From: Candidatus Poribacteria bacterium | GTDB lineage: Bacteria; Poribacteria; WGA-4E; WGA-3G | Direction of reading: 5' to 3' | NCBI GenBank assembly: GCA_964291315.2 | Contig: OZ219752.1 | Location: forward strand, 256,001-320,000 | Length of the DNA stretch: 64,000 bases | Part shown: positions 46,943 through 54,944 of the stretch, piece after piece | Layout: every line of letters starts with the position of its first letter | Position numbering within the stretch: the stretch's first letter is position 1 | Translations under genes and position numbers: made by a program | Notes under the pieces: generated by a model | Database searches by the model: none | The model's input: only the letters and a program-made list of their open reading frames with translations | What the model was told of the DNA's origin: nothing

Positions 46943-46954
46943 GGAGGCATGTTG

Positions 46955-47002
46955 ATGAAGCACAGACGTATTGTAGTTGCAATAATATTAGGTTTGATGT
47001 AA
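46955..47002 (+). pseudogene. 15-codon stub MKHRRIVVAIILGLM (also 47760, 48565, 49368, 54859)
   Basis: GGAGG RBS; same distance from the upstream stop and same GL register as the start of 50173..54051. Confidence 0.6.
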
Positions 47003-47042
47003 TGTAAAGTTTACGGACTTAACTGAAAAGGAGAAGGATGTA

Positions 47043-47747
47043 ATGTTGAAGCAACTTTTATCGGACAAGCGTATTTTAGGTGGGCTTATCTGTGTGTTGG
47101 TGTTGGTTGTTGCCGGCGTGGTATATGAGAGATCGGTGAAACGACAAGCCCGCCGGGATATACAGCGCCCTGAAAAGATCGTCAAAGAGAGGCAACCTCG
47201 GGAGACCGGCTCTCAGTCCGCAGAGAGTGGTCACTACCATTCGGATGGCACATATCACACAGGCTCACATGAAGCACCGGCCGACACGACTGCCCCGTCA
47301 GCAGAGGGTAAGAGGAGCCGTATAGCTCCGGGAGATGTGATATGGATGGGCAAGCCGCTGCGTGAAGTGTCAGCACCCGATCCGCTGAGTCCCGCAGAGC
47401 GCAACGCACGCAATGCGAAAATACAAACACTCAATACACAGATACAGAAACTCAAACGCATAACAGAAGCACAGACCAACGAGTGGTTGGAACACCTTAA
47501 AAAATATCCTAAAATCAGCCGAGAAAAAAGGGCAATCTTGGCTGAGAAGGATAAACTCCTCGCTGTAGAAGATTGGACTGCGGAAGAACGAGCCCGCTAT
47601 GACGCACTTTCAAAAAGGTTTGAAGAATTGAACGATCTAAGTGACAAAAGACGCGCTATCTCTGAGCAAATGCAGGAAGAGAACCTCCAGCTTCTTGAAA
47701 AGCGCGATGCCCTTGAAGCGGAACTGAGTGCCTTACGGCGCCGATAA
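47043..47747 (+). CDS. array paralog 2 (type B)
   Basis: 234 aa; QTNEWLEHLKKYPKISRE. Confidence 0.9.
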   Translation: MLKQLLSDKRILGGLICVLVLVVAGVVYERSVKRQARRDIQRPEKIVKERQPRETGSQSAESGHYHSDGTYHTGSHEAPADTTAPSAEGKRSRIAPGDVIWMGKPLREVSAPDPLSPAERNARNAKIQTLNTQIQKLKRITEAQTNEWLEHLKKYPKISREKRAILAEKDKLLAVEDWTAEERARYDALSKRFEELNDLSDKRRAISEQMQEENLQLLEKRDALEAELSALRRR

Positions 47748-47847
47748 GGAGGGATGTTGATGAAACACAGACGTATTGTAGTTGAAATAATATTAGGTTT
47801 GATGTAATGTAGCATTTACTAACTTAACTAAAAAGGAGAAGGATATA

Positions 47848-48552
47848 ATGTTAAAGCAATTGTTATCGGATAAGCGTATTTTATGCGGTTTTATCTGTGC
47901 TTTGGTGCTGGTTGTTACGTCGCTGGTGTATCAGGGATCTGTGAAACGGCAAGTCCACCGAGATATACAACGCACTGAAAAGATCGTCAAAGAGAGGCAA
48001 CGTCAGGAGACCGGCTCTCAGCCCACAGAGAATGGGCACTACCATTCGGATGGCACATATCACACAGGCTCACATGAAACACCGTCTGGCATGACTGCCC
48101 CGTCAAAAGAGGTTGAGAGGAGCGGTATAGCTCCTGAGAGTGTGATATGGACAGGCAAGCCGCTGCGTGAAGTGTCAGCACCCGATCCGCTGAGTCCTGC
48201 AGAGCGCAAGGCACGCAATGCGAAAATACAAGCACTCAATACTGAGATAAAGCAACTTGTGCGCGCAACGCGGGCACACATGCACAAGTATAATGAACAA
48301 GTTGACAAATATCCCAAAATCAGGCAAGAAATAAAGGCAATCTCGACAGAGTTGGACACTTTCCCCGCTGCAGAGGATCGCACTACGGAACAACAGACAC
48401 GCTATGACACCCTTTTAAAACGGTATTTAGAATTGGAGAACCTTGCTGACGAAGTTCTCACTATCGCAAATGAAATGCGGGAAGAGAGCCGCCAGCTTCT
48501 TGAAAATCTCGATCCACTTGAAACGGAGCTGAGTGCGTTACGGCGCCAATAA
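47848..48552 (+). CDS. array paralog 3 (type C)
   Basis: 234 aa; RAHMHKYNEQVDKYPK. Confidence 0.9.
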   Translation: MLKQLLSDKRILCGFICALVLVVTSLVYQGSVKRQVHRDIQRTEKIVKERQRQETGSQPTENGHYHSDGTYHTGSHETPSGMTAPSKEVERSGIAPESVIWTGKPLREVSAPDPLSPAERKARNAKIQALNTEIKQLVRATRAHMHKYNEQVDKYPKIRQEIKAISTELDTFPAAEDRTTEQQTRYDTLLKRYLELENLADEVLTIANEMREESRQLLENLDPLETELSALRRQ

Positions 48553-53100: not shown

Positions 53101-54051
53101 AATGCGCAGGCGGTTGTAAGGCATAGCCGACATACTGCGCCGCTTGTTGCGTGTGGCAACTCTAACGCTGGGGATGGTGCGTGTTCACAGGGAGGCCGAG
53201 CCGTCTCAGCCAATGCTCATCAGACGACTTGTTTAGCAGGTCATACATATTGGTCGTGTAATGCCCCATCGGTCCTAATGCATAGCAAACATACTGCCCC
53301 CGTGGTCTGTCCTGCGGATAGTTGGACGGATTGTGGTGGCACGGTATCACATGCGGCGACGTGTCCAGCGGGTCATTCGTATTACACGTGTAACTCATCG
53401 TCAGCGTCGACACATTCAGCACATACCGCTCCGCCGCCGCCACCCCCTCCGCCGGAGGATCCGGTTGTTTGTCCTGCGGATAGTTGGACGGATTGTGGTG
53501 GCACGGTATCGCATGCGGCGACGTGTCCAGCGGGTCATTCGTATTACACGTGTAACTCATCATCAGCGTCGACGCATTCAGCACATACCGCTCCGCCGCC
53601 GCCACCCCCTCCGCCGGAGGATCCGGTTGTTTGTCCTGCGGATAGTTGGACGGATTGTGGTGGCACGGTATCACATGCGGCGACTTGTGCGGCGGGTCAT
53701 TCGTATTATACGTGTAACTCATCGTCAGCGTCGACACATTCAGCACATACCGCTCCGCCGCCGCCACCCCCTCCGCCGGAGGATCCGGTTGTTTGTCCTG
53801 CGGATAGTTGGACGGATTGTGGTGGAAAGGTGTCACATGCGGCGACTTGTGAAGCTGGGCACGAGTATTATACATGTAACTCGTCAGCAGCTTCGGAACA
53901 TTCGGAACATACCGCTCCCGAACCGGCCTGCCCTGCAAGTAGTTGGACAGATTGTAGTGGGACCGGAACGGAGCATAAGGCGAAGTGTGGTAGAGGGCAT
54001 ACGTATTACACGTGCAATTCTTCGGCGCTTAAGAAACACTCCAAGCATTAG
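50173..54051 (+). CDS. large secreted Cys/His-rich repeat protein
   Basis: GGAGG RBS; signal peptide; coiled coil with hydrophobic segment; 8+5 Cys4/His4 repeats. Confidence 0.9.
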   Translation: MNRKYTVTVFLCGLFCLHTVALVLANNEERTQSQKDAESKYAQALDGYQDAQIARGNVKIDVRALEITRGLLQKEISDEKLAAYGTVLNTAVALLTGASAATIATRTAAAIVIGKSVSDMVRTIRDALKENKKATLHKLKQGMYNLETELIERTKVVQDEAADANSELDAWKAVEPGATYDKKPLDERYIDVETMHPDYTRTLPDPPTYRSDTTETIACPACRDQVKPPYLTKIVVLSPGLIMGIEKTVKRYRGHEVTCAETRHSTGKACDGEYYSCLSPYSSASIVCPNDADHRVVGTCGELKGSRFKKHEYAKGSPGNHGKKLKTCGSIGMRWEQSDGTVTRQVCKIKVFPCAPAHGRHNWDLVSFKKLSLNLGSGSNYICANSSCSMSGSSSSGDDEDDEDDTADNTQGGSEYGMGMDVRSINGSGSPNVPHREQVARALASRAWRALHWNHSVSLGISAAPEQTTSPLKLSYEHQRVCSEGHKYWLCDASQRLGHAQLVCSRSACGQAFTQCSNHSSACVGGWHTGGAGDFSETADALAVVCGNPHRRDGACAYGGQTPSVNAHRTTCLAGHTYWSCNAQAVLTHSKHTARLVTCGNSNAGEGACSQGRQAVSLNAHQTTCLAGHTYWSCNPVAKQTHSSHTASSGEGTDAPNTVPARAPAPTPARPPTGDGACGNSNAGAGACSVGGKAPSANAHRTTCLAGHTYWSCNAQAVITHSRHTAPLVACGNSNAGAGACSQGGRVVSLNAHQVRCLAGHTYWSCNPVAKQTHSSHTASSGESASLSKISSMLLLTGDGACGNSNAGDGACSAGGRAPSANAHQIRCLAGHTYWSCNAQAVVIHSRHTAPLVACGNSNAGAGACSAGGQAVSLNAHQARCLAGHTYWSCNPLAKQTHSSHTASSGEGTDAPHLAPVAPDPKPSRAPAPTPARPPTGDVACGNSNAGAGACSAGGRAPSANAHQVRCLAGHTYWSCNAQAVVRHSRHTAPLVACGNSNAGDGACSQGGRAVSANAHQTTCLAGHTYWSCNAPSVLMHSKHTAPVVCPADSWTDCGGTVSHAATCPAGHSYYTCNSSSASTHSAHTAPPPPPPPPEDPVVCPADSWTDCGGTVSHAATCPAGHSYYTCNSSSASTHSAHTAPPPPPPPPEDPVVCPADSWTDCGGTVSHAATCAAGHSYYTCNSSSASTHSAHTAPPPPPPPPEDPVVCPADSWTDCGGKVSHAATCEAGHEYYTCNSSAASEHSEHTAPEPACPASSWTDCSGTGTEHKAKCGRGHTYYTCNSSALKKHSKH
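51805..53292 (+). repeat. eight intragenic CGN..C..NAH...CLAGHTYWSCN..HS.H repeats arranged in four pairs
   Basis: counted in translation; alternating short and Pro/Ala-rich linkers. Confidence 0.92.
53305..54048 (+). repeat. five intragenic CPA.SWTDC..H...C..GH.YYTCNSS..HS.H repeats, 162 bp period
   Basis: near-identical DNA units with poly-Pro linkers. Confidence 0.92.
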
Positions 54052-54064
54052 GCGATTTCTTTGA

Positions 54065-54098
54065 GAACAAAGCCTTGTTTTTCAGTAGGGCTTTGTTC
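54065..54098 (+). terminator. stem-loop after large gene
   Basis: GAACAAAGCCTT / AGGGCTTTGTTC; no U-tract on + strand. Confidence 0.55.
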
Positions 54099-54141
54099 AA
54101 AAGGAGGCAAAGCGAGTGCCTAATATTAAGGGGATGACGTA

Positions 54142-54846
54142 ATGTTGAGGCATCTATTATCAAACAAGCGGATTTTGGGTGTGGTTGTCTGTGCTTTAGT
54201 GCTGGTTGTTGCCGTCGTGGTGTATCAGGAAACGGTGAAACGGCAAGCTCACCGCGATATACAACGCACTGAAAAGATCGTCAAAGAGAGGCAACGTCAG
54301 GAGACCGGCTCTCAGCCCACAGAGAATGGGCACTACCATTCGGATGGCACATATCACACAGGCTCACATGAAACACCGTCTGGCATGACTGCCCCGTCAA
54401 AAGAGGTTGAGAGGAGCGGTATAGCTCCTGAGAGTGTGATATGGACAGGCAAGCCGCTGCGTGAAGTGTCAGCACCCGATCCGCTGAGTCCTGCAGAGCG
54501 CAAGGCACGCAATGCGAAAATACAAGCACTCAATACTGAGATAAAGCAACTTGTGCGCGCAACGCGGGCACACATGCACAAGTATAATGAACAAGTTGAC
54601 AAATATCCCAAAATCAGGCAAGAAATAAAGGCAATCTCGACAGAGTTGGACACTTTCCCCGCTGCAGAGGATCGCACTACGGAACAACAGACACGCTATG
54701 ACACCCTTTTAAAACGGTATTTAGAATTGGAGAACCTTGCTGACGAAGTTCTCACTATCGCAAATGAAATGCGGGAAGAGAGCCGCCAGCTTCTTGAAAA
54801 TCTCGATCCACTTGAAACGGAGCTGAGTGCGTTACGGCGCCAATAA
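54142..54846 (+). CDS. array paralog 6 (type C)
   Basis: identical to paralog 3 beyond residue ~38. Confidence 0.9.
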   Translation: MLRHLLSNKRILGVVVCALVLVVAVVVYQETVKRQAHRDIQRTEKIVKERQRQETGSQPTENGHYHSDGTYHTGSHETPSGMTAPSKEVERSGIAPESVIWTGKPLREVSAPDPLSPAERKARNAKIQALNTEIKQLVRATRAHMHKYNEQVDKYPKIRQEIKAISTELDTFPAAEDRTTEQQTRYDTLLKRYLELENLADEVLTIANEMREESRQLLENLDPLETELSALRRQ

Positions 54847-54944
54847 GGAGGGATGTTGATGAAACACAGCCGTATTGTAGTTGAAATAATATTAGGTTTG
54901 ATGTAGTCTATACTTCAGGAACTGAAAAGTAGGAGCATAACAAA

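Follow-up and report, generated by a model that had tools for sequence, protein, structure and literature searches.

Large secreted proteins standing beside small diversified paralogs, together with gene fragments and recombination, are features of the orphan toxin-tip/immunity arrays of the contact-dependent inhibition (CDI) and Rhs systems. In the orphan modules of polymorphic toxins, a 3' toxin-tip fragment and an immunity gene are located downstream of the main toxin. An array with a similar outline was analyzed here in a stretch of 64,000 nucleotides (nt) from a Candidatus Poribacteria bacterium (contig OZ219752.1, positions 256,001 to 320,000 of the forward strand), which is referred to as the window and to which the coordinates below refer. 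The array contains seven paralogous genes encoding proteins of 234 amino acids (aa), named P1-P7, a single large gene encoding a secreted protein of 1292 aa and, behind five of the P genes, a stub composed of a ribosome-binding site and 15 codons. It was concluded that the stubs are a largely ordinary feature, most likely the defunct first part of a gene for a secreted protein (S), which was copied together with the repeat unit.

The likeness to the CDI and Rhs arrays covers the large secreted protein, the array of small paralogs, the gene fragments and the recombination, and the initial annotation had compared the stub-bearing units with orphan-immunity arrays. Unlike in those systems, the fragments in the window are 5' gene starts and not 3' toxin tips, and the large gene is preceded by five of the seven small genes. 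A further difference is that the small proteins carry a membrane anchor and have a conserved metal-like His motif in common. Pfam, NCBIfam and PADLOC recognized no toxin, immunity or defence family in P1 or in the large protein, such an absence of matches being weak evidence. The analogy was not retained.

Tandem paralogs are also found in the lpl cluster of Staphylococcus aureus. According to an excerpt of its description (PMC2568036, Tsuru and Kobayashi 2008), a central conserved region acts as the recombination site and shuffling affects the variable 5' and 3' regions within open reading frames (ORFs), the conserved unit being made up of the variable 3' region, the sequence between the genes and the next ORF's 5' region. 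When compared with the cluster as excerpted (PMC2568036), each P ORF of the window likewise holds a conserved core between variable 5' and 3' flanks, a tract of 761 nt represents a two-gene unit and a mosaic of segments represents the shuffling. Unlike the lpl genes in that excerpt, whose products are lipoprotein-like (PMC2568036), the P genes encode no lipoprotein signal or lipobox and belong to no Pfam or NCBIfam family; the intergenic region of the window carries the relic of a second gene, and a partner gene of 1292 aa interrupts the array.

Geometry of the array and its stubs

The P genes were located on the forward strand between positions 46238 and 55649, where P1 (46238..46942), P2 (47043..47747), P3 (47848..48552), P4 (48651..49355, GTG start) and P5 (49456..50160) are followed by the large gene and then by P6 (54142..54846) and P7 (54945..55649). 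The count of paralogs was thus corrected to seven from the six given in the initial annotation. The start-to-start distances were 805, 805, 803, 805, 4686 and 803 nt. The seven proteins were aligned without gaps and showed 64-79% identity to P1, and no further copy was found in the whole 4.4-Mb genome. P5 was the sole paralog with a full-length partner gene behind it. P7 closes the array without a stub, the similarity stopping at its stop codon, and is followed by a GNAT gene from position 55707.

The five stubs were found exactly where the initial annotation had placed them. The TAA stop codons of P1-P4 and P6 (46940, 47745, 48550, 49353 and 54844) are followed directly by a Shine-Dalgarno (SD) sequence GGAGG, 7 nt, an ATG codon (46955, 47760, 48565, 49368 and 54859), the rest of 15 codons and a stop codon. 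The 12-nt gap sets each stub in frame with the P gene in front of it. The stubs lie on the forward strand at 46943..47002 (stub 1), 47748..47807 (stub 2), 48553..48612 (stub 3), 49356..49415 (stub 4) and 54847..54906 (stub 6). Stub 1 encodes MKHRRIVVAIILGLM and ends with TAA, and the peptides are summarized as MKH(R/S)RIVV(A/E)IILGLM with TAA used three times and TAG twice. Stub 3 carries the R4S change and a TAG stop, after which a beta-type 3' spacer begins; stub 6 is identical to it. In stub 4, the SD sequence is altered to GGCGG.

The start of the large gene (50173..54051, forward strand) was confirmed to share this register. Behind P5, the TAA codon at 50158 is followed by GGAGG, 7 nt and the ATG codon at 50173, from which the ORF of 1292 aa begins with MNRKYTVTVFLCGLF. 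When the junction behind P5 was aligned with that behind P1, a 36-nt alignment scored 32, compared with 16.9 ± 2.8 for 2000 shuffles (p = 0.0005).

A blastn search of the 4.4-Mb genome returned one 62-nt block, beginning with the P stop codon and ending on the second base of the stub's stop codon, at five places with 93.5-100% identity and nowhere else. Since the stubs are copies of one block, they were counted as one observation rather than five independent ones. The initial annotation had assumed that five units lost their partners separately. All stubs share the same block with the same boundary, hence one event followed by amplification was regarded as the simpler account.

The 3' tails of the spacers were of two types, alpha before the paralogs with an ATG start and beta before those with a GTG start. 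The tails were homologous (p = 0.0018), although only ~72% identical and different by indels. The stub stop codon is situated 40-43 nt 5' of the next P start. The offsets between the stub ATG and the next start were 88 and 86 nt, resulting in differing frames in the two spacer types, and a frameshifted N-terminal extension of the next P gene was therefore rejected as the source of the stub.

Gene pairs in relatives and the origin of the stub

The pairing of P with a secreted protein was surveyed in 73 Candidatus Poribacteria loci containing 94 P copies, 83 of which were complete ORFs. An SD-preceded ORF with a signal-peptide-like start was present no more than 200 nt behind 69 of the 83 complete P homologues, mostly at a gap of -4 to +60 nt, as judged by a crude signal-peptide rule in genomes that are related and thus non-independent. 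Under the identical rule, 47 of 182 other ORFs of at least 180 aa from the same loci were positive, and these controls included some shadow ORFs as well as the partner genes themselves. It was concluded from this difference that the unit of a membrane-anchored P and a secreted S is real and is the norm of the family, which agrees with the two-gene unit put forward in the initial annotation.

Among the partners of at least 100 aa (n = 52), many contained ~3-9% Cys (up to 9.4%) and often 3-5% His, like the large gene, while a minority contained far less. No Pfam family was found in 24 of the 26 partners scanned. The window paralogs share with the other Poribacterial pairs the N-terminal anchor of the family and the motif GHxHxDGxxH, and P5 forms a complete pair with the large gene at a gap of 12 nt. 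Unlike the other pairs, five of the seven units in the window lack a partner, P1-P4 and P6 being followed by a stub only; P7 is followed by neither.

P homologues were present in 21 of 36 other sampled genomes of the genus and in none of 24 genomes from three other families of the order. In a search of 1.84 billion proteins, a profile built from 27 family members retrieved 605 representatives of 50% clusters at E ≤ 0.001. In the protein database, a 43%-identical protein was the sole match apart from the paralogs of the window, and no close relatives of these paralogs were found in the metagenome contigs or in the genome contigs scanned with the window's own paralogs, a later genome-contig scan having been queried with more distant family members. 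A full-text literature search on Poribacteria turned up no paper on the pair. The P-S pair is uncharacterised and appears to be restricted to Poribacteria.

The N-terminal domain of the large protein (residues 1-360) had homologues only in genomes G022 and G034, that is, in three of 65 genomes of the genus including its own. Of the five matches, three begin immediately after a P homologue and one represents the downstream half of a split copy; the fifth is located at a contig end with its upstream side out of view. In G022 (L037, C17, 3320-6020), the helical N-terminal domain (384 aa, named S384) and a Cys/His-rich protein (500 aa) are encoded by two adjacent genes, whereas the window has a single ORF; either the genes were fused in the window or they were split in G022. 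In another G022 copy (C70), the N-terminal domain is broken into two ORFs.

The starts of 53 distinct partner genes of relatives were used as the null set for the stub. The highest likeness was recorded with the start of S384, the orthologue of the large gene, which matched the stub at 15 of 18, 17 of 24 and 19 of 30 nt (MKHRRI against MKNRPI), in a comparison that was made after the three homologues of the large gene had been chosen as candidates, that extends over 18-30 nt only and that counts the two identical G022 copies once. The 53 other starts reached maxima of 13, 16 and 17 over the same lengths, and none of them equalled S384. Over all 45 nt the score was 24, which was reached by 2 of the 53 starts, hence the likeness fades beyond ~10 codons. 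The large gene's own start differed more in this comparison (16 of 45 in register) and appears to have lost a codon. The proposal of the initial annotation that the stub is the 5' end of a secreted-partner gene was thereby strengthened. The search that it proposed for a full-length gene with the stub N-terminus gave a divided outcome, as the exact start was absent from the 64 other genomes of the genus and a full-length gene beginning with MKNRPI was present behind a P homologue of G022.

Further, the C-terminal helical hairpins of six window paralogs were scored against the hairpin of the G022 P protein that precedes the giant-type S gene, P6 being omitted because its hairpin is identical to that of P3. 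All six matched, with scores of 86-151, and that of P5 was not the closest. It follows that the whole array grew out of a P gene that was paired with a giant-type S gene, P5 being unexceptional in this respect.

We proposed, with moderate confidence, that the stubs are vestigial starts of a giant-type S gene, formed in one truncation or duplication event and then amplified by recombination among the P genes. We infer the following order of events. The vestige would comprise the ribosome-binding site and the first ~10-15 codons, i.e. the beginning of the signal peptide, of an S gene that normally follows P directly. A single event would have given rise to a unit of ~805 nt composed of P, the 5' stub and a P leader. 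This event would have been a segmental duplication with its right end within S, or the deletion of an internal part from an S copy, and would have ended ~45-60 nt into the gene. The stub reading frame would then enter foreign sequence and stop at the end of the conserved block. The unit would next have been amplified, shuffled and homogenised as the P paralogs underwent unequal crossing-over and gene conversion, with the stub as a passenger. Translation of the stub may still occur, because it retains an SD sequence and an ATG codon that is placed 12 nt behind the P stop and in frame with it, but the stub probably has no function of its own.

Several observations weigh against this explanation. 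The 60-nt stubs diverged pairwise by 3-8% only, and their identity of 92-97% exceeded that of the P 3' ends (58-83%) and of the 3' spacer (72-79%), which could mean constraint. The stub was also better conserved than expected from the synonymous divergence (dS) of the N-terminal half of P1-P4, which was 0.21-0.31. In register with the large gene, it matched at 24 of 45 nt, where the null mean was 18.0 (standard deviation 3.2) and 1 of 53 starts reached 24. At the peptide level, 4 of 15 residues agreed (M1, V7, G13 and L14), and 15 of 53 unrelated partner signal peptides reached this number. The initial annotation had pointed to G13-L14 and to the basic-then-hydrophobic pattern as shared with the large gene; this likeness was not above chance, and the pattern is common to any two signal peptides. 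The strict pattern MKH[RS]RIVV, which recovered the genome's own five stubs, found no gene start in the 64 other genomes, therefore the source copy of the stub was not pinned down. The likeness of the 3' spacer to the region 5' of P1 was not significant (p = 0.13-0.15), and the junction model was therefore unproven on that side. The selection of candidates and the short extent of the S384 match belong on the same side, as do the crude rule and the related genomes of the pairing survey.

Local alignments detected no degenerate stub 5' of P1, behind the large gene or behind P7 (p = 0.52, 0.28, 0.33, 0.17 and 0.81; p = 0.13-0.59). That the stub arose by joining of the start of S to its 3' end was also considered and rejected, since the last codons of the large gene gave only a 21-nt match (16 of 21, p = 0.17).

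Recombination and the alternative readings

A tract of 761 nt (47962..48722, forward strand), which extends from nt 115 of P3 through the stub and the spacer to nt 72 of P4, was 100% identical to 54256-55016, the corresponding P6-to-P7 stretch. Outside the tract, P3 and P4 differ from P6 and P7 at many sites. The tract is a very recent gene conversion or duplication spanning two genes. A map of segment types showed that each paralog is a mosaic, and the sliding identity among the P genes was 0.79-0.88 over nt 1-120, 0.83-0.98 (mostly 0.88-0.98) over nt 121-390 and 0.58-0.83 over nt 400-700.

Contigs of sister strains, obtained from four runs of one study (X1-X4) and compared at 90% likeness, contained further mosaics, with backward joints (48980 to 47373, 54576 to 49930 and 50052 to 49278). 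One X1 contig matched 50071-50851 without a difference, which confirmed the junction between P5 and the large gene. In a contig of run X2, a P1-type end was joined to a homologue of the large gene (46959 to 50251, side 39), and in a contig of run X4 a P3-type end was joined to such a homologue (48569 to 50602, side 52), both with a stub-type SD spacer. As the letters between the two sides were unread, these joints are a hint only, and they provide weak evidence that the large gene does not always stand behind one paralog type. Recombination inside the P genes was evident, and it was sufficient without the movable-gene slots suggested by the initial annotation.

The stub could instead be a selected small ORF or leader, which covers the spacer by translational coupling or anti-polarity or tunes the expression of the next paralog. 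The canonical spacing of SD and ATG 12 nt behind the P stop and in frame with it, the island of conservation amid variable flanks and the stop codon kept in both spacer types, as TAA or TAG, would agree with such a role. However, a coupled leader is recognized by a stop at the next start or SD or by an attenuator fold, and the stub stops 40-43 nt before the next start, to which it stands in different frames (offsets of 88 and 86 nt). Every P gene has its own SD sequence AAGGAG, and one of the four distinct stubs has a damaged one (GGCGG). The folds of the spacers were not significant (z = -0.82, +0.55, -1.14 and +0.69), Rfam gave no match at E ≤ 1 on the spacers, and none of 15 sigma-70 promoter matches (11.1 ± 4.3 expected) fell within them. 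The stub changes were two non-synonymous (R4S and A9E, the latter bringing a Glu into the hydrophobic run) and one synonymous, which are too few sites to measure selection.

The conservation itself was compared with fourfold sites of the most homogenised gene segment. Over codons 40-85 of the six P1-P4 pairs, 1-2 of 16-22 such sites differed (~7%), which equals the divergence of the stub. The conservation of the stub was therefore read as homogenisation. A residue is left unexplained by homogenisation, namely the sharp end of the highly identical block at the stub stop in both spacer types. Additionally, the P-P arrays of four relatives (L094, L108, L124 and L103) have short spacers without any stub-like ORF. 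In genome G028, each of three spacers holds a signal-peptide-like mini-ORF of 36 aa, and a four-codon MKRK stub lies beside a full MKRKTTFLL gene; L119 contains a 32-aa ORF of the truncated-partner kind. Taken together, these loci indicate that truncation of partners is recurrent and is not needed for an array. A selected leader was thus considered unlikely.

In another reading, the stub ORF arose by chance. The stop-SD-ATGAA junction would then be all that is shared with the large gene, through conversion tracts spilling over from the P 3' ends or through convergent coupling geometry, and the 15 codons would be random AT-rich spacer that is open by accident. The marginal likeness to the large gene within the ORF fits this account, and the five copies amount to one observation. 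The stop-SD-ATG arrangement with a 12-nt gap also recurs in unrelated family members, e.g. L044. The S384 comparison stands against it, as the matches exceeded all 53 null starts, and so do the independently truncated partners of other genomes and the exact homology in position between the stub and the start of the large gene, the sole full-length partner. A fortuitous ORF was therefore held to be improbable.

It is also conceivable, but was judged improbable, that the 62-nt block is a selected element, which combines a translated, coupled ORF of 15 codons with a homology box that re-pairs the giant S gene with hypervariable P hairpins. The conservation relative to the flanks, the sharp end at the stub stop and the joints of the large gene with P1-type and P3-type ends in sister strains hint at this possibility. 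If true, it would represent a recombinational partner-switching system in a sponge symbiont. The stubs as mere empty slots, i.e. homology boxes by which the large gene or other S cassettes are moved behind different P variants in programmed partner switching comparable to orphan cassette arrays, were considered very unlikely. The X2 and X4 joints and the mosaic array favour such slots. Against them, these joints come from contigs compared at 90% likeness with the letters between the sides unread, and the homology of stub and large gene extends over only ~20-36 nt at ~70-85% identity, a small substrate for homologous recombination. The conserved 300-nt core of P is a far better one and explains the 761-nt tract. 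Next to the array, neither a recombinase or integrase nor inverted repeats came to notice, and the genome contains no second S cassette, its single match to the N-terminal domain being the large gene.

As probable vestiges of an S gene start, the stubs themselves are of minor importance. They illustrate that a duplicated segment ending in a neighbouring gene leaves a translatable start in every copy. Through concerted evolution, debris of this kind can take on the appearance of conservation, a reason for caution in the calling of small ORFs.

The P and S proteins and the surroundings of the array

The surroundings were of greater interest than the stub, as they pair a membrane-anchored P protein, bearing a His motif and a hypervariable helical hairpin, with a secreted Cys/His-rich S protein, and this pair was found expanded and recombining among strains of a sponge symbiont. 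In the structure model of P1 (mean predicted local distance difference test score, pLDDT, of 85), a membrane helix (residues 9-55) is followed by a small beta-hairpin at GHYHSDGTYHTGSHE, a disordered linker and a long antiparallel helical hairpin (117-174 and 180-233, block mean pLDDT of 90-98). The half containing the helical hairpin was the more variable one, with a non-synonymous divergence (dN) of 0.11-0.36 versus 0.05-0.13 in the N-terminal half. The motif GHxHxDGxxH, which corresponds to GHYHSDGTYHTGSHE in P1, was invariant in all seven paralogs. Across 27 family members, G63, H66 and H72 were invariant, and H64 and D68 were kept in at least 90%.

P1 gave no families in Pfam, NCBIfam and PADLOC, P had no usable match in the ESM Atlas, and a Foldseek search of the PDB with the P1 model returned no match at E ≤ 0.001. 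The His motif (window 46425-46470 and the corresponding place in every paralog) gave weak PDB profile matches to 5w56_A and 6xpn_B (E = 0.0075 and 0.017). Both chains are named periplasmic solute binding protein, and the matches, which hint at metal binding, serve as a lead only. The P protein resembles periplasmic adaptors of the membrane fusion type, such as EmrA and LipC, in its N-terminal anchor and long antiparallel alpha-helical hairpin (Foldseek E = 0.15). Unlike these adaptors, it has no lipoyl or beta-barrel domains, and the likeness is that of any helical hairpin. The conserved and often overlapping gene junctions, the His motif and the Cys/His-rich partners led us to suggest that P may tether or handle its secreted partner in the periplasm. 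The role of the pair could lie in the envelope, in metal handling or in host contact.

The large protein consists of a signal peptide, a helical N-terminal domain, Cys/His-rich repeats and poly-Pro linkers. Tandem repeats occupy window positions 51790-53920, the C-terminal two thirds of the gene, in units of 159/372 nt and 162 nt with 75-93% matches. The corresponding modules of ~53-54 aa contain four Cys and several His residues (...C.AGH.Y..CN...HS.HT...) with poly-Pro between them, and no relative of the modules was found in Pfam, NCBIfam or PDB. The whole protein matched no families in Pfam, NCBIfam and PADLOC, and PDB sequence searches were empty, this absence being weak evidence. The N-terminal domain gave no usable ESM Atlas match, and its structure model was unusable (pLDDT 35).

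Behind the large gene, a terminator-like hairpin of 13 bp without a clear T run was located at 54062..54100 of the forward strand (z = -3.54; 0 of 200 shuffles folded as well). Two transcription units are possible, as the hairpin parts P1-P5 and the large gene from P6-P7.

In the relatives, a gene for an extracytoplasmic function (ECF) sigma factor was present 5' of P on the same strand in 17 of the 73 loci, with its end some 100-1,250 nt ahead of the start of P; the sigma protein of L036 matched NCBIfam TIGR02937 at E = 2.1e-24. A tblastn search with three ECF sigma proteins found no gene of this type in the 64-kb window, which sets it apart from those loci. A role of P as an anti-sigma factor bound to the membrane was not supported, because only ~12 residues precede its membrane helix, where a cytoplasmic sigma-binding domain would be expected. 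Several sigma-linked loci (L074, L075, L088, L102 and others; ~2760-2955) carry an ORF of ~62 aa between the ECF sigma gene and P. Its product has one membrane helix and Cys-Pro motifs (...CPYP..CPY...) and is a candidate for the real anti-sigma partner. Fifteen residues were too few to tell whether the stub is a remnant of this 62-aa membrane ORF, and such an origin was disfavoured by the register shared with the large gene start and by the absence of the ORF at P6.

Another array, independent of that in the window and made up of P paralogs of 200 aa that lack partners, was observed in L036 (G028:C2:1428000-1446000, positions 7533-12400). Each of its three 265-nt spacers contains a signal-peptide-like ORF of 36 aa (MSVLRLSSLLLFLAIVLF...). 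The partner gene behind the last paralog of this array is cut after MKRK by a sequence (translated as ...PLQKIEIACY...) that also lies behind a truncated partner in L025, from another genome, and that may be a mobile or repeated element.

Upstream of the array, the window contains a DNA methylase (N6_N4_Mtase) fused to HEAT repeats (40811-42214, reverse strand) and, just 5' of the array, a Ski2-like DEAD/DSHCT helicase (43178-45586, forward strand), of which PADLOC matched only generic cores. The 650 nt between the helicase gene and P1 (45586-46237) hold no forward-strand ORF of at least 60 aa and include a sigma-70-like promoter match (46075..46103, forward strand; TTGACA, 17 nt, TAAATT), which is a consensus match only. 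This stretch varies among strains, as contigs of runs X1 and X3 end loosely at 45805 and at 45948 and skip 74 nt (45851 to 45926).

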